From: a virus
Lineage: Duplodnaviria; Heunggongvirae; Uroviricota; Caudoviricetes
IMG/VR virus record: IMGVR_UViG_2872158770_000003
Direction: 5' to 3' (one strand)
Length of the DNA stretch: 37,298 nt
The position numbers and the translations under genes are program-made. Positions within the stretch are counted from its first letter, which is position 1. Each line of letters begins with the position of its first letter. The notes beneath the pieces were generated by a model. That model was given only the letters and a program-made list of their open reading frames with translations, had not been told where the DNA came from and made no database searches. Below, one piece after another: positions 1,738-35,399 of this stretch.

Positions 1738-1801
1738 TGAGGTAGCCTGAGTTTAACGGACACTCCTTCCTGAAATAGAATGGCATCAGAAGGAGCTAAT
1801 A

Positions 1802-2104
1802 ATGAGCAGAAAAACCCAACGTTACTCTAAAGAGTTCAAAGCCGAAGCTGTCAGAACGGTTCCTGAAAATCAACTTTCGATCAGTGAAGGCGCTTCCCGA
1901 TTATCTCTTCCTGAAGGCACTTTAGGACAATGGGTTACCGCCGCCAGAAAAGGGCTCGGTACTCCTGGTTCCCGCACGGTGGCTGAACTGGAATCTGAAA
2001 TTCTGCAACTGCGTAAGGCGTTAAATGAAGCTCGCCTTGAGCGAGATATATTAAAAAAAGCAACAGCGTATTTTGCACAGGAGTCGCTGAAAAATACGCG
2101 TTAA
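1802..2104 (+). CDS. IS600 OrfA (HTH transposase N-terminal protein, 100 aa)
   Basis: Translation MSRKTQRYSKEFKAEAVRTV...LQLRKALNEARLERDILKKATAYF is typical IS3-family OrfA with leucine zipper. Confidence 0.9.
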   Translation: MSRKTQRYSKEFKAEAVRTVPENQLSISEGASRLSLPEGTLGQWVTAARKGLGTPGSRTVAELESEILQLRKALNEARLERDILKKATAYFAQESLKNTR

Positions 2105-2139
2105 TCGAACAATGGCGACAACAATTTCCCATTGAAGCG

Positions 2140-2958
2140 ATGTGTCAGGTATTTGGTGTATCCAGGAGCGGTTATTACAACTGGGTACAGCATGAACCCT
2201 CAGACAGAAAACAAAGTGATGAGCGGCTAAAACTGGAGATTAAGGTGGCACATATCCGCACTCGCGAAACATATGGAACCCGGCGGCTCCAGACGGAGCT
2301 GGCAGAGAATGGCATCATCGTTGGTCGTGACCGACTGGCACGTCTTCGTAAGGAGCTAAGGCTACACTGTAAGCAGAAACGCAAGTTCAGAGCGACTACG
2401 AACTCGAACCACAATCTGCCAGTTGCGCCAAATCTGCTGAACCAGACGTTCGCTCCTACAGCACCAAATCAGGTCTGGGTGGCGGACCTGACGTATGTTG
2501 CCACACAGGAGGGATGGTTGTACCTCGCTGGCATCAAAGATGTTTATACGTGCGAAATTGTCGGCTACGCCATGGGAGAGCGCATGACAAAAGAGCTGAC
2601 AGGTAAAGCCCTGTTTATGGCGCTCAGGAGCCAGCGCCCACCTGCCGGGCTAATCCACCACTCTGATCGAGGTTCACAGTACTGCGCATACGATTACCGG
2701 GTCATACAGGAGCAGTCTGGTCTGAAAACATCAATGTCGCGTAAAGGTAACTGTTACGACAACGCTCCGATGGAAAGCTTCTGGGGAACGCTGAAAAATG
2801 AGAGCCTGAGCCACTATCGTTTTAATAACCGGGATGAAGCCATCTCAGTAATACGGGAATACATTGAGATTTTCTACAATCGTCAGCGTCGTCACTCTCG
2901 TCTGGGGAATATCTCCCCGGCAGCCTTCAGGGAAAAATATCATCAGATGGCTGCTTAA
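2140..2958 (+). CDS. IS600 OrfB (DDE transposase catalytic domain, 272 aa)
   Basis: Translation contains IS3-family integrase-core motifs (WVADLTYV..., HSDRGSQY..., NAPMESFWGTLK); normally expressed as OrfAB fusion. Confidence 0.9.
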   Translation: MCQVFGVSRSGYYNWVQHEPSDRKQSDERLKLEIKVAHIRTRETYGTRRLQTELAENGIIVGRDRLARLRKELRLHCKQKRKFRATTNSNHNLPVAPNLLNQTFAPTAPNQVWVADLTYVATQEGWLYLAGIKDVYTCEIVGYAMGERMTKELTGKALFMALRSQRPPAGLIHHSDRGSQYCAYDYRVIQEQSGLKTSMSRKGNCYDNAPMESFWGTLKNESLSHYRFNNRDEAISVIREYIEIFYNRQRRHSRLGNISPAAFREKYHQMAA

Positions 2959-3001
2959 AAAAAGAACAAATGGTAGTGTCCGCTATTGCCAGTACACCTC
3001 A

Positions 3002-3200
3002 TCCATCACCGAAAAAAATTGGCTTTTACACCATTGGCGATAAAAGCATTTACCTGTATGACCTACGCCGCATGGATGAAATCATGGAGGCTCTTGATAA
3101 TCGTTCGTCGATGGATTGGTGTGTTGCTGTTCATGATATGAATGCAGGGTTTGATGAAAAGATTTTGTTCCCCTCATCAGTTGAAAGCACTGCGGGTTAA
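3002..3200 (+). pseudogene. 3' fragment of a prophage gene truncated by IS600
   Basis: Reading frame enters from inside IS600 and ends ...DEKILFPSSVESTAG; no start codon outside the IS. Confidence 0.35.
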
Positions 3201-3210
3201 GGAGTAACAC

Positions 3211-3378
3211 ATGACCACTATTACCAAAGAACGTATTGAATTGTTCATTAAAAACCCGCTTGAAAACGGGCTTACCCGTGGTGAACAAATGGAACTGGCA
3301 CGGATTGCGCTGGCATCGCTGGAAGCAGAGCCGGTTGTGTTCTGGTTTGAAAAATATCAAGAAGGGGCTACGGCATGA
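3211..3378 (+). CDS. hypothetical protein (55 aa)
   Basis: ATG at 3211 preceded by AAGGAG (3199-3204); stop overlaps next start (ATGA); shares ALASLEAEP / ALVSLAAEP motif with the following ORF. Confidence 0.45.
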
Positions 3379-3719
3379 CGACTTTTACCAGAGAGCAGTT
3401 AATAGCTCACGCAGAGGAGACTATTGAAGCACAGAGACTGTGCATACCGGGCACAATCGACCATGACATCATCCGCACATATAAGATGGATATTGCTGTT
3501 CTGGAAATCGCACTGGTATCGCTGGCAGCAGAGCCAGCCGGTAAATTGCATGAATACAAACCAGTGGGATATCAGCGTCTGGTCGATGAGTTAACCATGC
3601 TGGTAAAGCAGTTAACCTGGCAACTGAGAAAAGCGAAGCCAGACTGCAAATTACCGGATAAGGCGATGAGTTATCTGGAGCGGAACGGACTGATAAGCGT
3701 GGAGGATATTTTACGATGA
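3375..3719 (+). CDS. hypothetical protein (114 aa)
   Basis: ORF translationally coupled to neighbours on both sides; lies in the prophage region upstream of hok. Confidence 0.45.
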
Positions 3720-3799
3720 CCTGGCCTGAAGCATTAACAACGGTAGGAATTGCGATGGCGGTGGCGCTGGTGGTGTATTCGATTTGCCGCTGGGGATAA
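3716..3799 (+). CDS. possible small hydrophobic peptide (27 aa)
   Basis: ATG overlaps stop of preceding ORF (ATGA); translation [27 protein letters not shown] is membrane-like; too short for the ORF track. Confidence 0.25.
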
Positions 3800-4010
3800 A
3801 AACGGTTTGCGGGAAAAGGAGAGTTAAGTAGAATTGCAGCGGGTGCTTGAGGCTATCTGTCTCAGGCATGAACACCAAAAGGCAGATAGAGAAAAGCCCC
3901 AGTTAACATTACGCGTCCGGCAAGACGCTTAACATTAATCTGAGGCTCAATCTATGAACGGCAAATCTAGGTTAGCCTCTTACGTGCCGAAAGGCAAGGA
4001 GAAGCAGGCT

Positions 4011-4166
4011 ATGAAGCAGCAAAAGGCGATGTTAATCGCCCTGATCGTCATCTGTTTAACCGTCATAGTGACGGCACTGGTAACGAGGAAAGACCTCTGC
4101 GAGGTACGAATTCGAACCGGCCAGACGGAGGTCGCTGTCTTCACAGCTTACGAACCTGAGGAGTAA
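4011..4166 (+). CDS. hokD: Hok/Gef-family type I toxin (51 aa), HokD/RelF-like
   Basis: Translation MKQQKAMLIALIVICLTVIVTALVTRKDLCEVRIRTGQTEVAVFTAYEPEE has the Hok signature (TM helix then C-x-[VI]-R and EVAAF-like motif); followed by a strong terminator. Confidence 0.75.
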   Translation: MKQQKAMLIALIVICLTVIVTALVTRKDLCEVRIRTGQTEVAVFTAYEPEE

Positions 4167-4236
4167 GAGACCAGGCGGGGGAGAAATCCCTCGCCACCTC
4201 TGATGGGTCAGGCATCCTCAATGCACCCACACTTAA

Positions 4237-4260
4237 CCCGCTTCGGCGGGTTTTTGTTTT
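4237..4260 (+). terminator. rho-independent terminator downstream of hok
   Basis: Hairpin CCCGC-TTCG-GCGGG followed by TTTTTGTTTTTATTTT. Confidence 0.7.
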
Positions 4261-4383
4261 TATTTTCAACGCGTTTGAAGTTTTAGATGGTGCCGGAATA
4301 GAATCAAAAATACTTAAGTAGCGCGCAGGGAGAAGAGGGATGGACCCCGAACAGGGGAGTGCTATTTATCTGGAAGGATTCTG

Positions 4384-4647
4384 TTGATGAAAATCGAAGA
4401 ATTACGTGAAATTTTTAGTGAAGATGGCCTCTATACTGTGCGCGTTGAGAATGGCGCTATTGTCAGCCACTGCCGTATTAAATGTTTACAGTCTCAACAA
4501 AGGAAGAGTGGAGCTGCGTTAATTCATTTTGTGGATGGGCTTGTGACGGATGGTTTTATTTCGCGTGCAAATGAATTTGTCACATCGTTGCCGTCTCTGA
4601 AAGAAGCTGGGATTAAGGCTGGTTTTTCTGCTTTTGAAGATGAGTGA
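4384..4647 (+). CDS. hypothetical protein (about 86 aa; ATG at 4387)
   Basis: ORF in the position of the small gene that follows hokD in K-12 Qin-type prophages (recalled gene order); identity not verifiable. Confidence 0.4.
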   Translation: MMKIEELREIFSEDGLYTVRVENGAIVSHCRIKCLQSQQRKSGAALIHFVDGLVTDGFISRANEFVTSLPSLKEAGIKAGFSAFEDE

Positions 4648-4713
4648 ATTCATCTACAATTCAGCGCAGGGCTGAACCCCTGTTGAGTAACACTGTGCCA
4701 CCGGAGAAAGCCG

Positions 4714-4992
4714 ATGGCGCAAAATTCCAGACTACACAATTCTGATAATTCAGCCGTCTTTGCCAGCAGGCACGGGCGGCGCTCTCACGCATTTAAATCT
4801 GATTGGTACCAGCATCCCCCATGCACTGAAGAACAGGCCGAATGGCTCATTCAGTGTTACCGCAGGCGCGGATGCGAGGTTAAAAAAGCCCTTAGCCTCG
4901 ACTACCGTCACTGGATAATCTCCGTCAGGCTCCCTTACTCCGAACGGCCAACGCGTCCGTCCCGCACATTCCAGCAACGGATCTGGAGGTAA
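4714..4992 (+). CDS. hypothetical protein (92 aa), possibly a split-off N-terminal part of the next gene
   Basis: ORF ends 1 nt before the DUF968-like ORF begins in another frame. Confidence 0.3.
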   Translation: MAQNSRLHNSDNSAVFASRHGRRSHAFKSDWYQHPPCTEEQAEWLIQCYRRRGCEVKKALSLDYRHWIISVRLPYSERPTRPSRTFQQRIWR

Positions 4993-4993
4993 T

Positions 4994-6052
4994 GTGCGGG
5001 TATTACTTCGACCTGTTCTGGTACCGGAACTCGGTCTGGTTATCGTTAAGCCAGGCCGTGAATCAATGTCAGCATTCCATAACGGCAGAATACTGGTGGA
5101 GCCGGAACCAAAAAGCATGCGTAATCTGCCGTCCGGGGTCGTTCCTGCCGCTCGCCAGCCGCTGGTGGAAGACAAAACATTGCTGCCGTTTTTCAGTAAC
5201 GCACGGGTGATTCGTGCTGCTGGTGGTGCTGGTGCATTGTCTGACTGGCTGTTGCGCCATATTAAATCCTGCCAGTGGCCACACGGCGATTATCATCACA
5301 GCGAAACCGTCATTCACCGTTATGGTACCGGCGCAATGGTGTTGTGCTGGCACTGCGACAACCAGCTGCGTGACCAGACATCCGAATCACTCGAGCAACT
5401 TGCTCATCAAAACCTGTCAGCATGGATGATTGACGTCATCGGTCACGCAATAAGCGGTACGCAGGAGCGTGAATTATCTCTGGCTGAATTATCCTGGTGG
5501 GCGGTCCGCAATCAGGTGGCGGACGCGCTACCGGAAGCGGTATTACGTCGTTCGCTGGGGTTGCGTGCGGAAAAAATTCGCTCTGTGTACAGTGAAAGCG
5601 ACATCATACCGGGAGAGCAGACAGCCACCAGCATACTGAAGCAGCGCACAAAAAATATTGCGTTACTGCCTCACGTCCACCAGCAACAGAACCCACCACA
5701 GGAAAAGACGGTGGTCAGCATTGCCGTTGATCCGGAGTCACCGGCTCAGTATCTCCAGCGCCAGAAATCACAACGGGAAGAGATGCCTGTATACACGCGC
5801 TGGGTAAAAACGCAGAAATGCATGACGTGTGGCAATCAGGCAGATGATCCGCATCACATCATTGGTCATGGACTGGGAGGGATGGGAACAAAGGCTGATG
5901 ATTTGTTTGTTATTCCGTTATGCCGTAAATGCCGTAACGAACTACATGCCGGAGTAAAAGATTTTGAAGAGAAACACGGCAGTCAGCTGTTGTTGCTGAT
6001 TCGTTTTTTAATGCACGCGAGAAATTCGGGTGTTCTGAAGTGGAAAGCATAA
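4994..6052 (+). CDS. YdfU-like (DUF968) prophage protein with C-terminal HNH-like zinc motif (352 aa)
   Basis: Length and position (upstream of Q) match YdfU-type proteins; C-terminus CMTCGNQADDPHHIIGHG...CRKCRNELH resembles an HNH/zinc finger. Confidence 0.6.
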   Translation: MRVLLRPVLVPELGLVIVKPGRESMSAFHNGRILVEPEPKSMRNLPSGVVPAARQPLVEDKTLLPFFSNARVIRAAGGAGALSDWLLRHIKSCQWPHGDYHHSETVIHRYGTGAMVLCWHCDNQLRDQTSESLEQLAHQNLSAWMIDVIGHAISGTQERELSLAELSWWAVRNQVADALPEAVLRRSLGLRAEKIRSVYSESDIIPGEQTATSILKQRTKNIALLPHVHQQQNPPQEKTVVSIAVDPESPAQYLQRQKSQREEMPVYTRWVKTQKCMTCGNQADDPHHIIGHGLGGMGTKADDLFVIPLCRKCRNELHAGVKDFEEKHGSQLLLLIRFLMHARNSGVLKWKA

Positions 6053-6433
6053 ATGACCGAGCGCATAGAATTTGTTTTACCTTACCCGCCGACGGTGAAC
6101 ACTTACTGGCGTCGTCGTGGCAGCACATATTTTGTATCAAAAGCCGGGGAGCGTTATCGCCGGGCAGTGGCGCTTATTGTTCGCCAGCAGCGGCTGAAAT
6201 TAAGCCTGTCCGGAAGGTTGGCAATAAAAATTATTGCAGAACCACCGGATAAGCGCCGCCGTGACCTGGACAATATTCTGAAAGCGCCGCTGGATGCGCT
6301 GACGCATGCGGGGTTGCTAATGGACGATGAGCAGTTTGATGAAATCAATATCGTTCGTGCTCAGCCAGTATCTGGTGGACGTCTGGGGGTGAAGATTTAT
6401 CCCATAATGCTTGAAGGGCAGGTCAAAAAATGA
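6053..6433 (+). CDS. rusA: RusA-family Holliday junction resolvase (126 aa)
   Basis: N-terminal LPYPPTVNTYWRRRG and central PDKRRRDLDNILKAPLDALTHAGLLMDDEQ match the RusA catalytic motif pattern. Confidence 0.8.
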   Translation: MTERIEFVLPYPPTVNTYWRRRGSTYFVSKAGERYRRAVALIVRQQRLKLSLSGRLAIKIIAEPPDKRRRDLDNILKAPLDALTHAGLLMDDEQFDEINIVRAQPVSGGRLGVKIYPIMLEGQVKK

Positions 6434-7251
6434 AACTGGAAGATTTACCGAAATACTACTCCCCAAAATCCCCCGGCCTGACTGATGCATCGGCCTCAAC
6501 GTCGAAAGATGCGCTGAGTATCACTGATGTGATGGCCGCGCAGGGCATGACACAGAATCGGGCTGAGATGGGGGTTTCTGCGTTCCTTGGGAAAATGGGC
6601 ATTAGTATGAATGACAGAGAGCGGGCAACAGAATTGCTGACAGAATATGCACTCAGTCGGTGTGATCGCGTGGCGGCGTTAAGAAAACTCCCGGCAGAAA
6701 TAAAACCGGCAGTGATGCGTATTATGGCTTCGTATGCGTTTGAAGATTATGCCCGTAGCGCGGCGAGCAAAAAACAGTGCCCCTGCTGTCACGGAAAAAA
6801 ATTTATTGAAAGCGAGGTTTTTACAAACAAGATCCAGTATCCGGATGGTAAGCCGCCGGTATGGGCAAAGTGTACGAAAGGTGTGTATCCGTCTTACTGG
6901 GAAGAATGGAAAAAAGTCAGGGAGGTGGTAAAAGTTGCCTGTCCGGAGTGTGGCGGAAAGGGTGAGGTTTCCACCGCCTGTAAGGATTGCCGTGGGCGTG
7001 GTGTCGCCATTCATCGTGAAGAGTCGGTAAAACGTGGTATGCCTGTTATCAGAGACTGCCAGCGTTGTGGTGGTCGTGGCTATGAAAGACTACCATCAAC
7101 GGAGGCATTTAATGCTATATGCGAGGTGACAAACCAGATAACACGCGCGTCATGGGAAAAAACAGTTAAGAAATTTTATGATGCGCTGGTGACCCGGTTT
7201 GATATTGAAGAAGCATGGGCTGAGCGGCAGTTAAAAAAGGTAACTAGGTAA
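6430..7251 (+). CDS. late-gene antitermination protein Q (273 aa)
   Basis: Overlaps rusA stop (ATGA); several CxxC zinc-finger pairs; sits directly upstream of a PR'-like promoter and short-transcript terminator. Confidence 0.7.
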   Translation: MKLEDLPKYYSPKSPGLTDASASTSKDALSITDVMAAQGMTQNRAEMGVSAFLGKMGISMNDRERATELLTEYALSRCDRVAALRKLPAEIKPAVMRIMASYAFEDYARSAASKKQCPCCHGKKFIESEVFTNKIQYPDGKPPVWAKCTKGVYPSYWEEWKKVREVVKVACPECGGKGEVSTACKDCRGRGVAIHREESVKRGMPVIRDCQRCGGRGYERLPSTEAFNAICEVTNQITRASWEKTVKKFYDALVTRFDIEEAWAERQLKKVTR

Positions 7252-7256
7252 CAAGG

Positions 7257-7284
7257 TTGATTTTTCCGGAATCTGTGGTAAATT
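7257..7284 (+). promoter_or_regulatory. candidate late promoter PR' (-35 TTGATT, 16-nt spacer, -10 TAAATT)
   Basis: Hexamers read directly after the Q stop; TAAATT is the lambda PR' -10 hexamer (recalled). Confidence 0.4.
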
Positions 7285-7333
7285 CGTCATAACGATGGGC
7301 GTTTTATGCCTGACGTTAGAAGAGTTTCTACAA

Positions 7334-7356
7334 CCCGCCGCCGAGCGGGTTTTTTA
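7334..7356 (+). terminator. tR'-like rho-independent terminator (end of short 6S-like late leader)
   Basis: Hairpin CCCGC-CGCCGA-GCGGG followed by TTTTTT, about 50 nt downstream of the candidate PR'. Confidence 0.5.
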
Positions 7357-7475
7357 TGACTGAAATCGCGTCAGTACAGTAAACGCGCTGGTGGCGGTGA
7401 ATACCTGTCTTTCAGCTTGCTGGCTTTTTCGACAAGAGTTATTGGTGTGTCACGTTAACCGGAAAAGGAAAAGAC

Positions 7476-7673
7476 ATGCTAAAACAGCAGGATATGACAG
7501 AAACCGCCAGAGTGGTGTTTAATGAATTAAGCGTTACCGAACCGGCGACAGTCGGGGAGATAGCGCAGAATACTTACCTTTCACGCGAACGCTGCCAGTT
7601 AATACTGACCCAGCTGGTTATGGCGGGTCTGGCAGACTATCAGTTCGGTTGTTACAGACGCCTTCCGCAGTGA
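7476..7673 (+). CDS. small winged-helix DNA-binding protein (65 aa), PapI/FaeA-like
   Basis: RBS AAGGAA upstream; helix-turn-helix-like segment TVGEIAQNTYLSRERCQLILTQLVMAGLA; sits directly upstream of a DNA methyltransferase. Confidence 0.4.
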   Translation: MLKQQDMTETARVVFNELSVTEPATVGEIAQNTYLSRERCQLILTQLVMAGLADYQFGCYRRLPQ

Positions 7674-7823
7674 AGGCTTTTTTATTTGTGGTAAATGGGC
7701 GGCTGGTGGGTGTTAGGGGCACCCACCAGCCATCTGCTCATGCGTTGGGTTCACAAGCAAACCTCAGGCCCACTGCTTTGCGCAAAAGCAGAATGAGCCT
7801 ATCAGAGACAGGCTTAATGATCC

Positions 7824-8882
7824 ATGCTTAATACTGTAAAAATATCCAGTTGTGAGTTAATCAACGCCGACTGCCTGGAATTTATCCGGTCGTTACCCGA
7901 AAATTCTGTTGACCTGATAGTCACGGACCCGCCGTACTTTAAAGTGAAGCCTGAGGGCTGGGATAACCAGTGGAAGGGCGACGATGATTACCTGAAGTGG
8001 CTGGACCAGTGTCTGGCGCAGTTCTGGCGGGTGCTGAAACCTGCCGGAAGTCTTTACCTGTTCTGTGGTCATCGCCTGGCATCTGATATCGAAATCATGA
8101 TGCGTGAACGCTTCAGTGTGCTGAACCATATTATCTGGGCGAAGCCGTCCGGACGCTGGAACGGATGCAACAAGGAAAGCCTGCGGGCGTATTTCCCCGC
8201 CACAGAGCGCATTCTGTTCGCGGAACATTATCAGGGGCCGTATCGTCCGAAAGATGCCGGGTATGCGGCGAAGGGCAGTGCACTGAAACAGCATGTGATG
8301 GCCCCGCTGATTTCTTACTTTCGTGATGCGCGAGCTGCCCTGGGGATAACGGCAAAACAGATTGCAGATGCCACAGGAAAGAAAAACATGGTGTCGCACT
8401 GGTTCAGTGCCGGTCAGTGGCAGTTGCCGAATGAAAGCGATTATCTGAAATTACAGGCGCTGTTTGCCCGGGTGGCAGAAGAGAAGCATCGGCGTGGTGA
8501 ACTGGAAAAGCTCCACCACCAGCTGGTGGATACGTATACCTCACTGAACCGGCAGTATGCGGAGCTGCTGAGTGAATATAAACATCTGCGGCGGTATTTT
8601 GGCGTGACGGTGCAGGTGCCGTATACCGATGTGTGGACGCATAAACCGGTGCAGTTCTATCCCGGGAAACATCCGTGCGAAAAACCGGCAGAAATGCTGC
8701 AGCAGATAATCAGCGCTAGCAGTCGTCCGGGTGACCTGATTGCAGATTTTTTCATGGGGTTGGGTTCGACAGTGAAAGCGGCACTGGCGCTCGGGCGTCG
8801 TGCAATTGGCGTTGAGCTGGAGACTGAACGTTTTGAGCAGACGGTTCGGGAAGTACAGGATTTAGTCAGCCAGAACGGATGA
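7824..8882 (+). CDS. DNA methyltransferase (N6-adenine/N4-cytosine, beta-class order) (352 aa)
   Basis: Catalytic DPPY motif near N-terminus (LIVTDPPYF) and SAM-binding FxGxGS motif near C-terminus (DFFMGLGST), i.e. motif IV before motif I. Confidence 0.8.
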   Translation: MLNTVKISSCELINADCLEFIRSLPENSVDLIVTDPPYFKVKPEGWDNQWKGDDDYLKWLDQCLAQFWRVLKPAGSLYLFCGHRLASDIEIMMRERFSVLNHIIWAKPSGRWNGCNKESLRAYFPATERILFAEHYQGPYRPKDAGYAAKGSALKQHVMAPLISYFRDARAALGITAKQIADATGKKNMVSHWFSAGQWQLPNESDYLKLQALFARVAEEKHRRGELEKLHHQLVDTYTSLNRQYAELLSEYKHLRRYFGVTVQVPYTDVWTHKPVQFYPGKHPCEKPAEMLQQIISASSRPGDLIADFFMGLGSTVKAALALGRRAIGVELETERFEQTVREVQDLVSQNG

Positions 8883-8922
8883 TATTGAAGAATTAATTAC
8901 GCGTCGTTATTATGCGGCTCCC

Positions 8923-8998
8923 GGCCCTTTAGCTCAGTGGTGAGAGCGAGCGACTCATAATCGCCAGGTCGCTGGTTCAAATCCAGCAAGGGCCACCA
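8923..8998 (+). tRNA. ileZ: tRNA-Ile2 (anticodon CAT, lysidine-type)
   Basis: Cloverleaf folded by hand: acceptor GGCCCTT/AAGGGCC, anticodon loop CTCATAA, T-loop TTCAAAT, encoded CCA; close to E. coli tRNA-Ile2 (recalled). Confidence 0.85.
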
Positions 8999-9005
8999 TC
9001 ACATA

Positions 9006-9082
9006 CCGCCATTAGCTCATCAGGAAAGAGCGCCAGCCTTCGAAGCTGGCTGCGCGGGGTTCAAGTCCCCGATGGCGGTCCA
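9006..9082 (+). tRNA. tRNA-Arg (anticodon TCG)
   Basis: Acceptor CCGCCAT/ATGGCGG, anticodon stem CCAGC/GCTGG with loop CTTCGAA, T-arm CGGGG-TTCAAGT-CCCCG, encoded CCA. Confidence 0.85.
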
Positions 9083-9095
9083 TTATCTGCATCAT

Positions 9096-9172
9096 GCGTT
9101 GTTAGCTCAGCCGGACAGAGCAATTGCCTTCTAAGCAATCGGTCACTGGTTCGAATCCAGTACAACGCGCCA
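9096..9172 (+). tRNA. tRNA-Arg (anticodon TCT, reads AGA/AGG)
   Basis: Acceptor GCGTTGT/ACAACGC, anticodon stem ATTGC/GCAAT with loop CTTCTAA, T-arm CACTGG-TTCGAAT-CCAGT, encoded CCA. Confidence 0.85.
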
Positions 9173-9186
9173 CACTTATTTTCCCT

Positions 9187-9212
9187 GGCTCGCTTTTGCG
9201 GGCCTTTTTTTT
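9187..9212 (+). terminator. rho-independent terminator after the tRNA cluster
   Basis: Stem GGCTCGC/GCGGGCC (one G-U pair), loop TTTT, followed by eight T. Confidence 0.6.
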
Positions 9213-9217
9213 AAATG

Positions 9218-9435
9218 TCTCACAATTCAGACGGTTGACAGTTGTCTGTTTTGCGGGGAGTTTGTTAAAAGAAACTGGCATGGTGAATCCCCCTGTGCGG
9301 AGGGGCAATCAGCGAGTAGGTATATGGGATAATCGCGGATTCAGGTGCTGGTACTGAATTCACCGGGAGGCACCCGGCATCATGCAATGGCACATAGCGC
9401 CACTCTCCAGCCCTCTCCGGAGGGGCTTTTCTGTG
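9218..9435 (+). repeat. module A of a diverged tandem duplication (TTGACA hexamer, conserved hairpins, terminal terminator)
   Basis: Shares collinear blocks with module B: CTCACAATTCAG, TTGACAGTTG, TTTGTTAAAA, GCATGGTGAATCCCCCTG, GCGGAGGGGC, CACCGGGAGGCACCCGGCA, CCCCTCTCCGGAGGGG + T-run. Confidence 0.6.
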
Positions 9436-9685
9436 CCGGATACATCACAGTTTCTGGAACCTTAGGTACTACAGTATCAGTCAGGGTGCTATATTTTCAG
9501 ATGTGATGAAAGCCTGTCAGCAGGCAGGGCGTATCGGAAATGACCCAGTAGAGAAAACGTTGACTCAGATACCGGTGCTGAGTTACCGGGAAACCGGCAT
9601 CACATGACCGCTATCCTTCCAGGCCCATCCGCTCCGGTGGGCCTTTTTACTGCAGAAAACAGGTTCCCCGTTAAATGCTATGTTG

Positions 9686-9919
9686 CTCACAATTCAGTAA
9701 GTTGACAGTTGCCTGTCAGACTGGGCATTTGTTAAAAAAATTTCGCATGGTGAATCCCCCTGAGCGGAGGGGCGACTGGTGACGGTATAATCTCTGATTA
9801 TCAAAACGAGAATGACGCGGGTTTAGTGGCACCGGGCTGAACTCACCGGGAGGCACCCGGCACCATGTGCATGATGATACAGATACGCGGCTTTAGCCCC
9901 TCTCCGGAGGGGTTTTCTT
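9686..9919 (+). repeat. module B of the diverged tandem duplication; contains a perfect TATAAT at 9786-9791
   Basis: Same ordered blocks as module A about 467 bp downstream; preceded by terminator hairpin GGCCCA-TCCGCTCCGG-TGGGCC + TTTTT (9622-9649). Confidence 0.6.
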
Positions 9920-10147
9920 GTGGGCAAAAAAAGCCCGCGCTGGGAGACGCGGGCGGCAAGGAATAAACAATAAAACGTGAAGTAATATTTCAGCTGGCGA
10001 ATAATACCCCATAGTAATCACTCTGCGCAACTGCGCGGTCTTTTTCGAATTGCGGGCTGTCGTCTCTCTTCTGCCATTGTCCTGTAACTTCCGGACTTCA
10101 GCCCGCTCCTTATTTTACTCACAATATTATCCCGGCCGGGAGGATTC

Positions 10148-12001
10148 ATGGCATTTAAACACTATGACGTGGTCAGGGCGGCATCGCCGTCAGACCTTGC
10201 GAAACGACTGACACAAAAACTGAAGGAGGGCTGGCAGCCGTTTGGTAGTCCGGTGGCCATAACCCCTTATACCCTGATGCAGGCGATTGCAGCAGAAGGT
10301 GATGTGGTCGTCAGTGGTGCAACTGAGCCGGAGTGGTACTACGTCATCGTACTGGCCGGGCAATCCAATGCCATGGCTTACGGTGAAGGTCTTCCGCTTC
10401 CGGATTCATACGATGCGCCCCATCCGCGCATTAAGCAACTGGCCCGTCGTAACACAGTGACTCCCGGTGGTGAAGTATGCGTATTTAACGACATCATTCC
10501 TGCTGACCATTGTCTGCATGATGTTCAGGATATGAGTACGATTAACCATCCCCGGGCTGACCTGAGCAAAGGGCAGTACGGCTGTGTCGGACAGGGCTTA
10601 CATATTGCCAAAAAACTGCTTCCGTATATCCCTAATAATGCGGGGATCCTGCTGGTACCATGCTGTTGTGGTGGTTCGGCATTCACCCAGGGCACGGAGG
10701 GGACATTCAGCGAGTCCACGGGGGCCAGTCAGGATTCGGCTCGCTGGGGAGTGGGTAAGCCGTTATATCAGGATCTGCTTTTCCGCACGAAGGCAGCATT
10801 GCAGAAAAACCCGAAAAACGTTTTGCTGGCGATATGCTGGATGCAGGGGGAATTCGATATGACGAATGCCAGTTACGCCCAGCAGCCAGCAGCATTTCTT
10901 GCAATGGTACAGCAGTTCCGTGCTGACCTTGCCGGGCTGGCGGCGCAGTGTCACGGTGGAAGTCCGGCATCAGTCCCCTGGATTTGTGGCGACACGACAT
11001 ACGCGTGGAAACAAGAACACGGTACGCAATATGAAGTGGTATATGGTGCATATAAAGGTAAAGAATCCCAGCAGATTTATTTTGTTCCCTTTATGACCGA
11101 TGGTAGCGGAGTTAATACACCGACAAACAACCCGTCAGAAGATCCTGATATTGCCGGGTCTGGTTATTACGGTTCGGCATCCCGAACGAACAAAAACTGG
11201 GTATCATCAAATCGCCCGACGCATTTCAGCTCATGGGCGCGTCGTGGCATTATTCCCGATCGTATGGCAACTGCTATTCTGAACGTAGCCGGTCGCACCT
11301 TAGCCTTCATTAGTGGTAAGGCACCGGAAATCAAACCCTCGCCCGGCGGCGACACGCCATCGGGGCCGTCTGAAGATGCATCCATACGCACAATCTCCCT
11401 GTTGCCGACAGCCGGAGACGCTGCTGCGCAGGGCTGGAGCATTAAGAATGGCGGAGTTCAGTTGTCAGATGGTGTATTTAAGATCACCAAGCAGAGCAAT
11501 AAAGCCTGGTCCCTGACGCGCCCGGTGGATGACGCAGTCTCCCTGCTGACACGGGGTGGCAGACTGAGCTGTAAGTTTCGACTGTCAGGCGCACTGACCA
11601 ACAACCAGTTCGGTCTGGGAATTTATCTGTATACCGATGTAGCGTTACCTGACGTCGTGGCGATGACCGGGACTGGTAACCCGTTCCTGATGTCGTTCTT
11701 CACCCAGACCACAGACGGCAAACTGAATCTGATGCATCACAAGAAAGCAGGAAACACAAAGTTGGGCGAGTTCGGGAATTACAGTAACGACTGGCTGACG
11801 CTGGAGCTGGTGTTCACCGCCGGCAGTGCCACGGTTACTCCGAAACTGAATGGAGTGGCTGGCCCGGCATTCCAGGTCATAAAAGACAGTCTGACACTGG
11901 GGCTGAATGCGCTGACGCTGACGGATATTACCAAAAATGCAGCGTATGGCGTTGAGATAGAAAGTCTGGTGCTGGAGATAAATGCACCGGCATCATCATA
12001 A
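10148..12001 (+). CDS. nanS-p: prophage NanS-p-type sialate O-acetylesterase (617 aa)
   Basis: RBS GGGAGGA upstream; SGNH-hydrolase-like block VIVLAGQSNAMAYGEG; size and position (after phage tRNAs, before the holin) match Stx-phage nanS-p (recalled). Confidence 0.7.
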   Translation: MAFKHYDVVRAASPSDLAKRLTQKLKEGWQPFGSPVAITPYTLMQAIAAEGDVVVSGATEPEWYYVIVLAGQSNAMAYGEGLPLPDSYDAPHPRIKQLARRNTVTPGGEVCVFNDIIPADHCLHDVQDMSTINHPRADLSKGQYGCVGQGLHIAKKLLPYIPNNAGILLVPCCCGGSAFTQGTEGTFSESTGASQDSARWGVGKPLYQDLLFRTKAALQKNPKNVLLAICWMQGEFDMTNASYAQQPAAFLAMVQQFRADLAGLAAQCHGGSPASVPWICGDTTYAWKQEHGTQYEVVYGAYKGKESQQIYFVPFMTDGSGVNTPTNNPSEDPDIAGSGYYGSASRTNKNWVSSNRPTHFSSWARRGIIPDRMATAILNVAGRTLAFISGKAPEIKPSPGGDTPSGPSEDASIRTISLLPTAGDAAAQGWSIKNGGVQLSDGVFKITKQSNKAWSLTRPVDDAVSLLTRGGRLSCKFRLSGALTNNQFGLGIYLYTDVALPDVVAMTGTGNPFLMSFFTQTTDGKLNLMHHKKAGNTKLGEFGNYSNDWLTLELVFTAGSATVTPKLNGVAGPAFQVIKDSLTLGLNALTLTDITKNAAYGVEIESLVLEINAPASS

Positions 12002-12085
12002 AAAGTGAGCCAGCCAAATGGAAGGTATCGTTAAACTCACCGGTAGTGTCAGTGGGTCGTCTGAGATGCCTGCATGAGTTATCAG

Positions 12086-12117
12086 AGCCATCAGTACTTA
12101 ACTGGTGGCTTTTTTTA
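12086..12117 (+). terminator. rho-independent terminator downstream of nanS-p
   Basis: 9-bp stem AGCCATCAG/CTGGTGGCT (one G-U), loop TACTTAA, then TTTTTTT. Confidence 0.6.
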
Positions 12118-12151
12118 TTGTTGTCAGCTTCCGGATAACGGGAGACGGGGT

Positions 12152-12367
12152 ATGTACCAGATGGAAAAAATCACAACAGGTGTGTCATACACCACGTCAG
12201 CGGTGGGAACGGGCTACTGGTTCCTGCAGTTGCTGGACAGGGTTTCCCCGTCTCAGTGGGCGGCAATAGGCGTGCTGGGGAGTCTGCTGTTTGGGCTGCT
12301 GACATATCTGACTAACCTGTATTTCAAAATCAGAGAGGACCGTCGTAAGGCTGCACGGGGAGAGTAA
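12152..12367 (+). CDS. S: class II holin (phage-21 S-type pinholin), dual-start motif MYQMEK
   Basis: Translation ...[51 protein letters not shown] matches phage 21 pinholin (recalled); two in-frame ATGs at 12152 and 12161. Confidence 0.75.
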
Positions 12368-12371
12368 TTCA

Positions 12372-12686
12372 ATGACTCAAAACTATGAACTGATTGTGAA
12401 AGGGATCCGCAATTTTGAGAATAAAGTTACGGTAACTTTAGCGTTACGGGACAAAAAACGCTTTGACGGTGAAATTTTTGACCTGGACATCTCGCTGGAC
12501 CGTGTTGAAGGTGCCGCGCTGGAGTTTTATGAGGCAGCAGCCAGAAGGAGCATCAGACAGGTCTTCTTGGATGTTGCTGCCGGGTTATGTGAAGGGGACG
12601 AGCTGTTGCCAGAAACGCGCCCCTGTTCAGAGGCGCGGTATACCATAAAAATTAACAGTTCTGATAACTCGATTACGGGTTGTTAG
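12372..12686 (+). CDS. hypothetical protein (104 aa) between holin and endolysin
   Basis: ORF with GGGGAGAG RBS region 5 nt after holin stop; no family recognised. Confidence 0.4.
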   Translation: MTQNYELIVKGIRNFENKVTVTLALRDKKRFDGEIFDLDISLDRVEGAALEFYEAAARRSIRQVFLDVAAGLCEGDELLPETRPCSEARYTIKINSSDNSITGC

Positions 12687-12741
12687 CTTTTTGCAGTTGG
12701 CTTTCCAGTATCTTTCATTGGTAGCATCCTGATAAATATCC

Positions 12742-12794: not shown

Positions 12795-12912
12795 AAAATG
12801 GCATCTGAATCGATCGCAGTTTGGCATTCGAATCGATCATGATTTGGCATCCATCTCCGATCACAGTTTGGCATCACAATCGATCACGATTTGGCATACT
12901 TCCGATCATTGA
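12795..12912. repeat. five tandem direct repeats of about 23 bp (consensus TTTGGCATCnnAATCGATCAnGA)
   Basis: Units AAATGGCATCTGAATCGATCGCAG / TTTGGCATTCGAATCGATCATGA / TTTGGCATCCATCTCCGATCACAG / TTTGGCATCACAATCGATCACGA / TTTGGCATACTTCCGATCATTGA. Confidence 0.7.
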
Positions 12913-13119
12913 TTGGAATTCGCCAGTCACTCCGGGAATTAACTCTTTTCACCACAGTCTCCATTGCCGTGTTTAAACCAGTGGAGACGTCAATGTCCAA
13001 AAAGAGAAAATCCAGGAGCACTATGGAAACTTGTTTTAAGATCCTTCAGCTCAAGTTCGATAAGAAGCTGACTAACTGAGGTGTACTGGCAATAGCGGAC
13101 ACTACCATTTGTTCTTTTT

Positions 13120-13938
13120 TTAAGCAGCCATCTGATGATATTTTTCCCTGAAGGCTGCCGGGGAGATATTCCCCAGACGAGAGTGACGACGCTGACGATT
13201 GTAGAAAATCTCAATGTATTCCCGTATTACTGAGATGGCTTCATCCCGGTTATTAAAACGATAGTGGCTCAGGCTCTCATTTTTCAGCGTTCCCCAGAAG
13301 CTTTCCATCGGAGCGTTGTCGTAACAGTTACCTTTACGCGACATTGATGTTTTCAGACCAGACTGCTCCTGTATGACCCGGTAATCGTATGCGCAGTACT
13401 GTGAACCTCGATCAGAGTGGTGGATTAGCCCGGCAGGTGGGCGCTGGCTCCTGAGCGCCATAAACAGGGCTTTACCTGTCAGCTCTTTTGTCATGCGCTC
13501 TCCCATGGCGTAGCCGACAATTTCGCACGTATAAACATCTTTGATGCCAGCGAGGTACAACCATCCCTCCTGTGTGGCAACATACGTCAGGTCCGCCACC
13601 CAGACCTGATTTGGTGCTGTAGGAGCGAACGTCTGGTTCAGCAGATTTGGCGCAACTGGCAGATTGTGGTTCGAGTTCGTAGTCGCTCTGAACTTGCGTT
13701 TCTGCTTACAGCGTAGCCTTAGCTCCTTACGAAGACGTGCCAGTCGGTCACGACCAACGATGATGCCATTCTCTGCCAGCTCCGTCTGGAGCCGCCGGGT
13801 TCCATATGTTTCGCGAGTGCGGATATGTGCCACCTTAATCTCCAGTTTTAGCCGCTCATCACTTTGTTTTCTGTCTGAGGGTTCATGCTGTACCCAGTTG
13901 TAATAACCGCTCCTGGATACACCAAATACCTGACACAT
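13120..13938 (-). CDS. IS600 OrfB (272 aa)
   Basis: Same protein as 2140-2958 apart from one substitution (R/H). Confidence 0.9.
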   Translation of the reverse strand: MCQVFGVSRSGYYNWVQHEPSDRKQSDERLKLEIKVAHIRTRETYGTRRLQTELAENGIIVGRDRLARLRKELRLRCKQKRKFRATTNSNHNLPVAPNLLNQTFAPTAPNQVWVADLTYVATQEGWLYLAGIKDVYTCEIVGYAMGERMTKELTGKALFMALRSQRPPAGLIHHSDRGSQYCAYDYRVIQEQSGLKTSMSRKGNCYDNAPMESFWGTLKNESLSHYRFNNRDEAISVIREYIEIFYNRQRRHSRLGNISPAAFREKYHQMAA

Positions 13939-13973
13939 CGCTTCAATGGGAAATTGTTGTCGCCATTGTTCGA

Positions 13974-14276
13974 TTAACGCGTATTTTTCAGCGACTCCTG
14001 TGCAAAATACGCTGTTGCTTTTTTTAATATATCTCGCTCAAGGCGAGCTTCATTTAACGCCTTACGCAGTTGCAGAATTTCAGATTCCAGTTCAGCCACC
14101 GTGCGGGAACCAGGAGTACCGAGCCCTTTTCTGGCGGCGGTAACCCATTGTCCTAAAGTGCCTTCAGGAAGAGATAATCGGGAAGCGCCTTCACTGATCG
14201 AAAGTTGATTTTCAGGAACCGTTCTGACAGCTTCGGCTTTGAACTCTTTAGAGTAACGTTGGGTTTTTCTGCTCAT
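13974..14276 (-). CDS. IS600 OrfA (100 aa)
   Basis: Identical to 1802-2104 product. Confidence 0.9.
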   Translation of the reverse strand: MSRKTQRYSKEFKAEAVRTVPENQLSISEGASRLSLPEGTLGQWVTAARKGLGTPGSRTVAELESEILQLRKALNEARLERDILKKATAYFAQESLKNTR

Positions 14277-14332
14277 TATTAGCTCCTTCTGATGCCATTC
14301 TATTTCAGGAAGGAGTGTCCGTTAAACTCAGG

Positions 14333-14890
14333 CTACCTCAGCCGGAAGAACAGACTGGCTTCCTCTCTGTTCATCGGCAGATAGCCTATTTCATCCAGGA
14401 TCAACACCCGGGCATAACTCAGTTGCTGTAGCTGACGCTCCAGCCGGTTTTCCTGTTTCGCTTTCATCAGTGTCGCGATCAGTCTGTCCAGTGGCATAAA
14501 CAGTACCCGATGTCCCGCATCCACCGCTTTCACGCCAAGAGCTATGGCCAGATGAGTTTTTCCGACACCAGGAGGGCCCAGCAGGATCACGTTTTCGCTG
14601 CGCTCCACGAACGCCAGACCAGCCAGTTCCCGGACAACCTTACGGTCGATGCCCGGCTGGAAGGTAAAGTCGAACTGCTCCAGCGTTTTGACCCACGGCA
14701 GACGAGCCTGCTTCAGCCTGGACTCCATACCGCGCTGATGCCTGCCGTTCCATTCCTGCTGTAGCGCCATGCACAGGAACTCCCGGTAGTTCAGCTCTTT
14801 TTTAGCTGCCTGTTCCAGCAGGCTTTCAACGTGATAACTCAGATGCTCCATTTTCAGGCGACTCAGCAGGACTTCCAGTTCATGCATCAC
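14333..14890 (-). pseudogene. istB: IS21-family helper ATPase IstB, C-terminally truncated by IS600 (185 aa remain)
   Basis: Walker A LLGPPGVGKTHLA and Walker B VLILDEIGY present; frame runs into the IS600 terminus where a stop is supplied by IS600 sequence. Confidence 0.75.
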
Positions 14891-16160
14891 AACAGCTCCT
14901 CATAGGCACTCAGTGGTCGATGTTCCACCTGACTGACCTGCTGCCAGAGCGGGGCGTGATGCTCCGGCACTGTCTGCCAGCCAGACGATGCTGAACAGAG
15001 GCGATGTGAGGCCACCAGTTTCTCATTACTGTAGATCCGCAACTCGTCATCCAGCGATATTCGTATCGATACCGGCTGACCACACAGCGCTTCGGGAACG
15101 CTGTAACGATTACCACCAACCTCGATATAGCTGTCCCAGGACACATGGCGGATATCGAAGTAACTGGTATCGAAGTCTGTATCCGGTAACGGCTGCAGAT
15201 GTTCCTGCTCCAGCGCGAAGCGCTGTTCCGGCGTTTCTTTGAACTGGCGAAGCTCCCGTTTGTCAGCCACATCGGCTATCCATTGCTCCAGTTGTTGATT
15301 GACATGAGTGAAGCTGTCGAACCTGCGGTACCGGACGAAGAAGTTCTCCTTGAGGTATTTCACCATCCGCTCAACCTTACCTTTTGTTCTGGCCCTGCGT
15401 GGACGGCATGCCCGTGGCAGGAAGTTATAGTGGTCAGCCAGCAACAGGAATCCGGAGTTGAACACGACTTTCCCGTTGTTATTCTTCAGCACCGCAGCCT
15501 TCTGGTTATCAACCAGCACCGTTTTCACACAACCACCGAAGTAGCGGAAGGCGCGAACCAGTGATTCGTAGGTATGCTCAGCATCCTGTTTTGGTGCGGC
15601 GAAGACATGGAAGCTGCGGGAGAACCCCAGCGTATTAACCGCAAAGTTAACTTTGCACCGTTGCCCGGCAACCTCCACCTCAACTTCGCCCCAGTCATGC
15701 TGGAGCTGGTATCCAGGCTGAGTTTCGAAGCGAACTGTTCTTTTTGACGGACGCATTTTACGTTTGGGCTGGATGTAGTAACGCAGCATGGAACGTCCGC
15801 CCGTATAACCCATTGCCTTAATCTCCGCGAAGATAACCTCGCTATTCCAGACATTCTCTGCCAGGCGCATGTCGATGTAATCCATAAACGGTTTCAGCTT
15901 AACCATTTTGTGGCGGGTCTTTCTGGCTGGCGGTTCAGGGTATTTGAGGTAGCGTCTGACCGTCCGTTCAGAGCAACCAATCTGAGTCGCAATATCGACG
16001 ATGTACGCGCCCTGCTGGCGCATTTGCTTTATCATGTAAAAGTCCTCTCTGCTCAGCATGTTGATGTCCTTTCTGGTGTGAGAACCTTAAGGAAACAACA
16101 TGTTGGGTGGAGCGGACAATCCAAATGGCGAATTACCGTCTTATATCACTGGCGCTGACA
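14341..16160 (-). mobile_element. IS21-family element, partial: one terminus at 16160, other end removed by IS600
   Basis: istA then istB on minus strand; high-coordinate terminus reads ...CTGACA, placed where homology to FII begins at 16161; istB cut at the IS600 boundary. Confidence 0.6.
14887..16059 (-). CDS. istA: IS21-family transposase IstA (390 aa)
   Basis: N-terminal HTH and DDE integrase-core-like region; 4-nt overlap with istB as in IS21-family operons. Confidence 0.8.
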   Translation of the reverse strand: MLSREDFYMIKQMRQQGAYIVDIATQIGCSERTVRRYLKYPEPPARKTRHKMVKLKPFMDYIDMRLAENVWNSEVIFAEIKAMGYTGGRSMLRYYIQPKRKMRPSKRTVRFETQPGYQLQHDWGEVEVEVAGQRCKVNFAVNTLGFSRSFHVFAAPKQDAEHTYESLVRAFRYFGGCVKTVLVDNQKAAVLKNNNGKVVFNSGFLLLADHYNFLPRACRPRRARTKGKVERMVKYLKENFFVRYRRFDSFTHVNQQLEQWIADVADKRELRQFKETPEQRFALEQEHLQPLPDTDFDTSYFDIRHVSWDSYIEVGGNRYSVPEALCGQPVSIRISLDDELRIYSNEKLVASHRLCSASSGWQTVPEHHAPLWQQVSQVEHRPLSAYEELL

Positions 16161-34583: not shown

Positions 34584-34657
34584 TCATTGGGATTATGCCG
34601 CAGGTGATGCTGCCAACTTACTGATTTAGTGTATGATGGTGTTTTTGAGGTGCTCCA

Positions 34658-34933
34658 GTGGCTTCTGTTTCTATCAGCTGTCCCTCCTGTTCAGCTACTG
34701 ACGGGGTGGTGCGTAACGGCAAAAGCACTGCCGGACATCAGCGCTATCTCTGCTCTCACTGCCGTAAAACATGGCAACTGCAGTTCACTTACACCGCTTC
34801 TCAACCCGGTACGCACCAGAAAATCATTGATATGGCCATGAATGGCGTTGGATGCCGGGCAACTGCACGCATTATGGGCGTTGGCCTCAACACGATTTTA
34901 CGTCACTTAAAAAACTCAGGCCGCAGTCGGTAA
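34658..34933 (+). CDS. insA: IS1 InsA
   Basis: Same protein as 945-1220 with one substitution (G/S at residue 21). Confidence 0.9.
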
Positions 34934-35355
34934 CCTCGCGCATACAGCCGGGCAGTGACGTCATCGTCTGCGCGGAAATGGACGAACAGTGGGGCTATGT
35001 CGGGGCTAAATCGCGCCAGCGCTGGCTGTTTTACGCGTATGACAGTCTCCGGAAGACGGTTGTTGCGCACGTATTCGGTGAACGCACTATGGCGACGCTG
35101 GGGCGTCTTATGAGCCTGCTGTCACCCTTTGACGTGGTGATATGGATGACGGATGGCTGGCCGCTGTATGAATCCCGCCTGAAGGGAAAGCTGCACGTAA
35201 TCAGCAAGCGATATACGCAGCGAATTGAGCGGCATAACCTGAATCTGAGGCAGCACCTGGCACGGCTGGGACGGAAGTCGCTGTCGTTCTCAAAATCGGT
35301 GGAGCTGCATGACAAAGTCATCGGGCATTATCTGAACATAAAACACTATCAATAA
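34852..35355 (+). CDS. insB: IS1 InsB reading frame
   Basis: Identical to 523-1026 product. Confidence 0.9.
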
Positions 35356-35399
35356 GTTGGAGTCATTACCTATGCCGCAGACACGTCGTATGCAGGAAC

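Follow-up and report, generated by a model that had tools for sequence, protein, structure and literature searches.

The DNA analyzed here, IMG/VR virus record IMGVR_UViG_2872158770_000003, comprises 37,298 nucleotides assigned to the Caudoviricetes and is referred to as the window. Our subject is the segment that runs from a late antiterminator gene starting at 6430 to a holin gene ending at 12367, in which a first-pass annotation made from the letters alone had read the late cargo architecture of Shiga toxin (Stx)-converting lambdoid phages without toxin genes. Element calls came from an open reading frame (ORF) scan, ARAGORN, Rfam, Pfam, terminator and promoter scans, and blastn and tblastn searches. 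The Stx2a reference phage used for alignment was Stx2_95 (LC567838.1), which has the same plan as 933W and Sp5. STnc100 denotes Rfam family RF02076, with a gathering score of 47 bits, and counts given below for junctions and sequence elements are complete Escherichia coli genomes, among 5426, that matched with at least 80% query coverage. Coordinates are window positions, and features lie on the plus strand unless stated otherwise.

Gene order at the start of the late operon

The segment opens with a gene for a Q-type late antiterminator of 273 aa (6430-7251; Pfam PF03589 Antiterm, E = 1.6e-53). The protein contains two PF03589 stretches together with DnaJ-like CXXCXGXG zinc-finger motifs, and at the equivalent position of a related E. 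coli O121 prophage the NCBI Prokaryotic Genome Annotation Pipeline (PGAP) gives an "antitermination protein." The gene is followed by a tR'-like intrinsic terminator detected by the terminator scan (7332-7358, with a hairpin at 7332-7351 and then a T-run), and it is at this terminator (7332) that homology to Stx2_95 begins. Between the two lies a candidate for the late promoter PR' (7257-7284), read by eye as TTGATT at 7257, a 16-nt spacer, and TGgTAAATT ending at 7284; its placement directly after Q and before tR' would fit that of a lambdoid PR'. Of the PR'/tR' pair proposed in the first-pass annotation, the terminator is thus borne out by the scan and the promoter stays a candidate that agrees with the consensus at 8 of 12 positions. 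Together, the two (7257-7358) would yield a leader RNA of ~65 nt, comparable in position to StxS, the small RNA that early termination of the late transcript produces in Stx phages.

Downstream of tR' is a conserved ORF of 65 aa (7476-7673) that is 96.8% identical to a hypothetical protein of Stx2_95, had no match in a Pfam search, and is followed by a further scanned terminator (7660-7677). Next comes a gene for an N6/N4 DNA methyltransferase of 352 aa (7824-8882; PF01555, E = 7.9e-42), whose identity to its Stx2a-phage counterpart is 94.6%. A promoter-like site, TTGAAG, 17 nt, and TATTAT (8885-8913; promoter scan, 9/12 positions, a consensus match only), lies directly upstream of a cluster of three tRNA genes, which had been claimed at this place from the sequence and were found by both ARAGORN and Rfam. 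The first, with a CAT anticodon (8923-8998), is labeled Met by ARAGORN, is identical to a gene that PGAP calls tRNA-Ile in E. coli O121, and is also identical to its counterpart in Stx2_95, annotated there as tRNA-Met(CAT); it may correspond to the ileZ-like tRNA of Stx phages. Its sequence includes C4-G69 and C5-G68, which we take to be TilS determinants. The other two are tRNA-Arg(TCG) at 9006-9082 (Rfam tRNA, 58 bits) and tRNA-Arg(TCT) at 9096-9172 (Rfam tRNA, 70.1 bits), and an intrinsic terminator (9187-9212; GGCTCGC-TTTT-GCGGGCC then T8; fold energy of -13.8 kcal/mol, z = -3.9) closes the unit. This terminator is also kept in the Stx2a phage, just upstream of stx2A.

Past an interval of about 1 kb without a long internal ORF lies a gene for a sialate O-acetylesterase of 617 aa (10148-12001), which had been proposed to be of NanS-p type. 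The assignment is supported by sequence matches to solved structures of both NanS and NanS-p: residues 59-379 match NanS (PDB 3PT5, E = 4.9e-121), with conservation of AGQSNAMAYGEGLPLPD, which includes the GQSN nucleophile motif, and residues 421-613 match NanS-p (PDB 6YP6, E = 8e-30). With Pfam matches to DUF1737 (E = 1.3e-15), SASA (E = 2.4e-12), and DUF6645 (E = 4.7e-19), the protein has the N-terminal DUF1737, SASA/NanS catalytic, and C-terminal NanS-p domains, and it is predicted to act on 9-O-acetyl sialic acids such as 5-N-acetyl-9-O-acetyl neuraminic acid. Chromosomes with 99.89-99.99% identity to window positions 148-22001, among them that of Shigella sonnei 53G (HE616528.1), encode a protein with exactly the same residues.

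The segment ends with a class II (P21 S-type) holin of 71 aa (12152-12367; Pfam PF04971 "P21 holin S," E = 9e-33 over residues 5-67), which is 93% identical to the holin of the Stx2a phage and belongs to a class marked by two transmembrane segments and a dual start. Translation probably begins at 12152, where MYQM provides the dual start (Met1 and Met4), rather than at 12074. It had been called a pinholin; the class II holin family holds, and that functional label is not confirmed, as no endolysin gene that could serve as its signal-arrest-release (SAR) endolysin partner is left in the window. The 150-bp gap between esterase and holin was also considered as a site for PasA or PasC, which occupy this position in prophage PP2 of enteropathogenic E. 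coli (EPEC) E2348/69, and gave no BLAST match.

An unoccupied stx insertion point

A megablast search with 6400-12400 matched 395 phage records, mostly Stx-converting, at 85-94% identity, so the region is not a chance likeness. The annotated order in Stx2_95 is Q, small ORF, methylase, tRNA-Met(CAT), tRNA-Arg, tRNA-Arg, stx2A, stx2B, NanS-p (annotated yjhS), two small ORFs, and holin. The claim of an Stx-phage-type order without the toxin is therefore upheld: Stx2_95 has the same order, and every element lies at, or within a few bases of, the place given to it in the first-pass annotation. The synteny with Stx phages on which that claim depended is likewise confirmed by blastn, in which window 7332-9213 corresponds to Stx2_95 501-2386 with 94.3% identity over 1.9 kb.

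This first block of homology ends ~40 nt past the last tRNA, after the conserved terminator. Stx2_95 from 3719 (42 nt past the stx2B stop) then has two alignments in the window, one starting at 9216 and the other at 9687, and after stx2B the homology continues through the NanS-p gene and the holin. The blastn breakpoints (2386 to 9213 and 3719 to 9216) define an unoccupied stx insertion point at 9213-9216, where Stx2_95 carries 1332 bp comprising the stx2 promoter, stx2A, and stx2B; this segment is therefore simply absent from the window. No scar, insertion sequence (IS) element, or direct repeat was found in the junction sequences at 9213/9216, and direct repeats flanking the stx cassette, considered as possible mediators of its excision, were not visible at the junctions. 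Toxin remnants had been suggested as a target for tblastn; searches of the whole window with Stx2A and Stx2B at E values up to 100 returned scattered noise and nothing significant (best E = 1.2 and 0.41, respectively). The GC content of the stx2 cassette is 44.1%, versus 53.5-54.8% in its flanks, the signature of an inserted moron. The window thus shares the late-region synteny of Stx-converting phages, carries neither stxA nor stxB, and has incomplete lysis and morphogenesis modules.

Small RNA genes between the tRNA cluster and the esterase gene

The interval 9173-10147 had been described as a toxin slot with no ORF of at least 60 aa. That statement stands for ORFs wholly inside it; two mechanical ORFs overlap its left edge (9102-9308 on the minus strand, 68 aa, and 9124-9357 on the plus strand, 77 aa), and both start inside a tRNA-Arg gene. 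As a vacant slot the interval does not stand: only the point at ~9213/9216 is vacant, and the remaining ~930 bp contains small RNA genes. Nor is the slot empty of material known from Stx2 phages, because one of its small RNA types also sits downstream of stx2B there.

Three units of one family lie in tandem on the plus strand. Copy 1 of an STnc100-family small RNA gene (9249-9438; RF02076, 123.6 bits; terminator 9409-9427) is followed by a diverged third paralogue, the middle copy (9477-9650; RF02076, 30.1 bits, E = 0.0011; terminator 9621-9644), and by copy 2 (9716-9925; RF02076, 161 bits; terminator 9895-9914). Copy 2 is of EcOnc27/sRNA103 type, and its Stx2_95 homologue lies directly after stx2B. 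Within copy 1, window 9293-9429 is 98.6% identical to prophage PP6 of E2348/69. Each strong unit has its start marked by a direct repeat (9219-9306 and 9686-9773), and the mapped 5' end of EPEC PasD2, GCATGGTGAATCC, aligns at 9278 in copy 1 and at 9745 in copy 2. By analogy with PasD2, these positions are the likely 5' ends of the two RNAs, and the Rfam model therefore probably takes in ~29 nt of promoter. TGn-extended -10-like sites at ~9263-9271, 9487-9495 (TGcTATATT, in the middle copy), and 9730-9738 could serve as the small RNA promoters. A conserved TTGACA at 9235 and 9702 was considered as a -35 box and rejected, being 25 nt from the best -10-like hexamer.

All three plus-strand units share one fold, consisting of a closing stem, a 5' hairpin, two internal hairpins, a variable single-stranded linker, and the terminator. 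The middle copy forms its closing stem with different bases (UGUGAUG/CAUCACA versus GCAUGGUG/CACCAUGU), and most of the differences between its two natural alleles fall in the 5' hairpin and the terminator, with hairpin pairing kept in both. In an RNAalifold consensus of seven family members (the three window copies, two phage homologues, PhiR5_2, and PasD2), compensatory changes were seen at 9 of the 29 pairs. Variation is greatest in the linker that precedes the terminator and that in EPEC contains the PasD seed, as might be expected if the copies had differing target sets. We also considered the copies as direct equivalents of PasD2 and rejected this: BLAST aligns only the first 26-42 nt, corresponding to the 5' hairpin, and the kinship is at the level of structure; PasD2 itself scores below the RF02076 gathering score.

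Facing these units on the minus strand is a convergent small RNA candidate (9926-10107; terminator 9954-9933) that is ~94% identical over 182 nt to an EPEC RNA. This RNA is the Hfq RIL-seq candidate E2348C_1409.E2348C_1408.IGR, whose top partner is the cfa 5' untranslated region and whose homologues in enterohemorrhagic E. coli (EHEC) are EcOnc08/21/42. The seed CCUUGCC, complementary to the target motif GGCAAGG/GGCAGGG, is intact just before the terminator. The candidate is antisense to the NanS-p 5' leader, and its 3' 65 nt have a fold z of -4.1. AsxR and AgvB (RF02703 and RF02702) were sought as the convergent partner and gave no match at E ≤ 1 in 6400-12700; AgvB occurs at the convergent position in the toxin-free prophage PPyecE_EH1910. 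An OmrA-B-like match of 25 bits was treated as chance.

The terminator scan found 15 terminator-like hairpins in 7200-10200, versus 2.6 expected, among them one each closing the tRNA unit, the three plus-strand RNAs, and the minus-strand RNA. As a separate observation, the motif CTCACAAT(TCAG) lies before both strong small RNA units (9219-9230 and 9686-9697) and recurs in the NanS-p leader (~10118). CUCACA is the PasD target motif reported in EPEC, and its match with this motif may be a coincidence.

Mechanical ORFs of 42-53 aa do exist in the slot, and annotators of related genomes have placed protein features there, so we weighed whether it encodes small proteins, such as a 53-aa ORF at 9345-9506 or ORFs of 43-46 aa, rather than RNAs. 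RefSeq/PGAP minus-strand pseudogenes of a "hypothetical protein," partial or frameshifted, lie over STnc100/PasD-type genes (the equivalent of window ~9270-9400), at 12469-12594, 4698-4939, and 2153-2251 in three related records. We regard small proteins as a highly improbable content of the slot: the ORFs cross covariance-model matches far above threshold, the PGAP features are themselves flagged as partial or frameshifted, and the homologous loci are experimentally mapped noncoding RNAs. The pseudogenes look like ORF miscalls over RNA genes.

Distribution of the toxin-free allele

The 1.5-kb stretch 8800-10300, spanning the tRNA cluster and the small RNA genes, was found at full length and 97.7-98.7% identity in 319 of the 5426 E. 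coli genomes, including O121, UTI89, S88, IHE3034, and the type strain ATCC 11775. The toxin-free junction itself (9130-9300) occurs in 1024 genomes (~19%), one of which is 100% identical over the 171 nt, and the tRNA-stx2A junction occurs in 592. The middle small RNA element (query 9440-9685) is present in 671 genomes, 347 of them at ≥99% identity, and in five phage records, none of them Stx-converting; no annotated feature lies under the match in 9 of 10 records among the matches listed.

These frequencies bear on how the toxin-free state arose. The prophage may once have been Stx-converting and may have lost stx2AB or stx1AB after entry into Shigella, by precise deletion or by recombination with a toxin-free prophage. 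The flanks are indeed close to those of Stx2a phages, with 94.3% identity over 1.9 kb, an identical tRNA-CAT, and a near-identical methylase and holin; lambdoid prophages recombine freely; and a preprint on the Pas small RNAs raised repeated stx loss after acquisition as one possibility. Yet the junction has none of the marks that a private loss might leave, whether stx remnant, scar, IS, or direct repeat, and it is shared by 1024 genomes of diverse pathotypes, including the perfect 171-nt match, so that it is an established allele and not a deletion peculiar to this prophage. With its low GC content, the stx cassette has the look of a derived insertion. Between the esterase and the Stx2-phage NanS-p, identity is just 53.8%, versus 85.6% with that of one toxin-free prophage and 99.4% with that of E. 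coli O121, and the middle paralogue, common in E. coli and present in non-Stx phages, was found in no Stx phage record. We therefore consider toxin loss unlikely; it is more likely that this lineage never held stx or obtained the region as a toxin-free allele by recombination. The first-pass annotation had left the choice open between an stx-free relative and a phage that lost or never acquired the toxin; the absence of toxin genes stands, and the evidence leans toward an inherited toxin-free allele.

A defective Shigella sonnei prophage

The last intact late gene is that of a DUF1327/YdfR-family protein (12372-12686; PF07041, E = 5.1e-39). Beyond it lies an IS block on the minus strand, in which IS600 (13077-14340) adjoins a truncated IS21 (14340-16160); identity to annotated copies of the two elements is 99.8-100%. 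These elements stand in place of the endolysin, Rz, terminase, portal, and capsid genes. From 16250 there are tail genes again, and the layout is the same in all matching S. sonnei loci. Because IS600 and IS21 have removed the lysis and head genes, the element can neither lyse a cell nor package DNA. The window, though it was taken for a phage, is thus an IS-eroded prophage remnant of S. sonnei that lacks endolysin, terminase, and head genes; it is a defective prophage, not a phage.

Several further features were noted outside the cargo segment. In all, the IS elements comprise two IS600 copies in opposite orientation, the truncated IS21, and several IS1 copies (1738-3001, 13077-14340, 14340-16160, and 34603-35370). 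A hok/sok type I toxin-antitoxin module lies at the early-late junction (3841-4166), with an Rfam sok match at 3841-4016 (112 bits) and a HOK_GEF ORF at ~3954-4166 whose position was carried over from the identical loci of S. sonnei. On the minus strand toward the window's right end (36380-36565), an Rfam C4 antisense RNA (75.9 bits) adjoins isrK (72.2 bits), and IS1 copies flank the pair. Between the DUF1327 gene and IS600 is a tandem repeat (12799-12922) with a period of 23 nt (or 47 nt), ~4 copies, and 72-77% matches.

Comparison with known prophage loci

The window resembles Stx2_95 in the order of antiterminator, tR', small ORF, methylase, tRNA-CAT/Arg/Arg, terminator, STnc100-type RNA, NanS-p, and class II holin. 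It differs in having a Q of 273 aa rather than 126 aa, three tandem STnc100-like genes rather than one, no 1332-bp segment of stx2 promoter, stx2A, and stx2B, and IS600/IS21 in place of the endolysin and head genes. The toxin-free prophage of E. coli O121 strain 201805972 has an identical gene order and the same two Rfam STnc100 matches, but unlike the S. sonnei copy, which lost them, it keeps the endolysin, Rz, terminase, portal, and capsid genes.

Convergent Hfq-bound small RNAs have been described at the moron site 3' of PR' in prophages of E. coli O157 Sakai (Tree et al. 2014, PMC4104026). In Sakai Sp5, EcOnc27 with AsxR lies 3' of stx2B, and similar pairs occur in Sp3, Sp4, Sp9, Sp10, Sp11, Sp15, and Sp17 (PMC4104026); STnc100 has been placed ~75 nt downstream of stx2B, overlapping EcOnc27/sRNA103 (PMC12370729, PMC12711010). 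Like the Sakai pairs, the window has a plus-strand STnc100/EcOnc27-type gene facing a minus-strand RNA, at a site between moron coding sequences or tRNAs and an esterase ORF. Unlike the EcOnc27/AsxR pair, its minus-strand partner is the EcOnc08/21/42-like RNA of EPEC prophage PP6, and its plus-strand gene is present in three diverged tandem copies.

In EPEC E2348/69, the order is PasD2, esterase, and PasA in PP2 and Q, tRNAs, ISEc13, small RNA, esterase, and holin in PP6. The window shares with both a PasD/STnc100-family RNA directly upstream of a SASA esterase gene and then a class II holin, but a methylase gene is missing from PP6, and PP2 lacks both methylase and tRNA genes ahead of PasD2. 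Other contents were seen in the same slot of further toxin-free prophages. One record (3167-4765) has a "plasmid stabilization protein," a transcriptional regulator, a TerB-like gene, STnc100, and AgvB, and two others (~1000-2300) have DUF3927, the middle RNA element, and iraM. The site is a multiallelic moron hotspot.

Interpretation

We interpret the segment as the "moron" cargo zone with which the late operon begins in a defective lambdoid S. sonnei prophage; this prophage is of the Stx2-phage backbone family and carries a toxin-free allele of the stx site. To this reading we assign a probability of roughly 0.88. A more specific proposal, which we offer tentatively and at somewhat less than even odds, is that the toxin-free allele represents alternative cargo, comprising three tandem STnc100/EcOnc27/PasD-family genes and a convergent cfa-targeting small RNA. 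Under this proposal, the persistence of an intact array in an S. sonnei prophage stripped of lysis and head genes would be in keeping with selection on its RNA, tRNA, and esterase cargo.

Some observations weigh against this interpretation. The early region is interrupted by IS1 and the second IS600, which bears on whether Q is ever expressed, and the PR' candidate is absent from the promoter-scan list. The sigma-70 promoter scan likewise passed no site upstream of any small RNA copy, leaving our own readings of weak motifs. Copies 1 and 2 pass the RF02076 gathering score and the middle copy falls below it. Relative to the O121 allele, copy 1 has a C-to-T change at 9381 that turns a closing-stem G-C into a G-U pair and a 1-nt deletion at ~9410 that shortens the 5' arm of its terminator, and it scores 123.6 rather than 136.9 bits; because of that deletion in the terminator stem, copy 1 may be decaying.

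Points of this kind could also mean that 9173-10147 is a non-functional spacer whose STnc100-like copies are decaying recombination relics not expressed in S. sonnei. The heavy erosion of the prophage, the weakened terminator stem of copy 1, and the failure of the promoter scan would all agree with this, as would the unremarkable minimum free energy z scores of copies 1 and 2 (-0.8 and -1.4). We nevertheless judge it unlikely. The 161 bits of copy 2 equal its score in O121 and come close to that of the copy in the Stx2a phage; homologues of the RNAs (EcOnc27/sRNA103, PasD1/2, and the EPEC 1409-1408 IGR RNA) are experimentally detected Hfq-bound RNAs; all four units retain hairpin and T-run terminators; and the minus-strand seed is intact, with pairing elsewhere kept by compensatory changes. 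The middle copy, which has the same architecture as copy 2, has a z of -2.5.

On the preferred reading, that of a toxin-free cargo zone, the expected behavior of the operon follows lambdoid biology. Q would load on RNA polymerase at PR' and allow read-through of tR' and of the downstream terminator chain, so that upon induction the methylase, tRNAs, small RNAs, esterase, and holin would be coexpressed. In the repressed state, only self-contained units would be transcribed, namely, the tRNA operon, with its own promoter-like site and its terminator at 9187, and the small RNA genes. The small RNAs are probably Hfq-dependent base-pairing regulators of host mRNAs, by analogy with their EHEC and EPEC homologues, the RNAs for which a discrete Hfq-bound species has been demonstrated. 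NanS-p would remove 9-O-acetyl groups from sialic acids, releasing acetate. With the lysis and head genes gone, the locus would remain only as domesticated cargo retained by the host.

The layout as a whole is ordinary and already described. What is added here is the precise point of stx insertion, the recognition that the "empty" slot is an island of four small RNA genes, and the finding that the window is a prophage of S. sonnei eroded by IS elements. The only mildly new item, and the one point that may merit follow-up, is the array of three tandem paralogues with its unannotated middle member. For Shigella and E. coli more generally, a Q-methylase-tRNA-NanS-p-holin layout does not imply a Shiga toxin phage, and annotations of the ORF-free gap within it should show small RNA genes, not empty DNA or pseudogenes of "hypothetical proteins." The clean toxin-free junction and the low-GC stx cassette illustrate the textbook picture of morons, in which the toxin is one of several alternative insertions in a fixed slot of the late operon.

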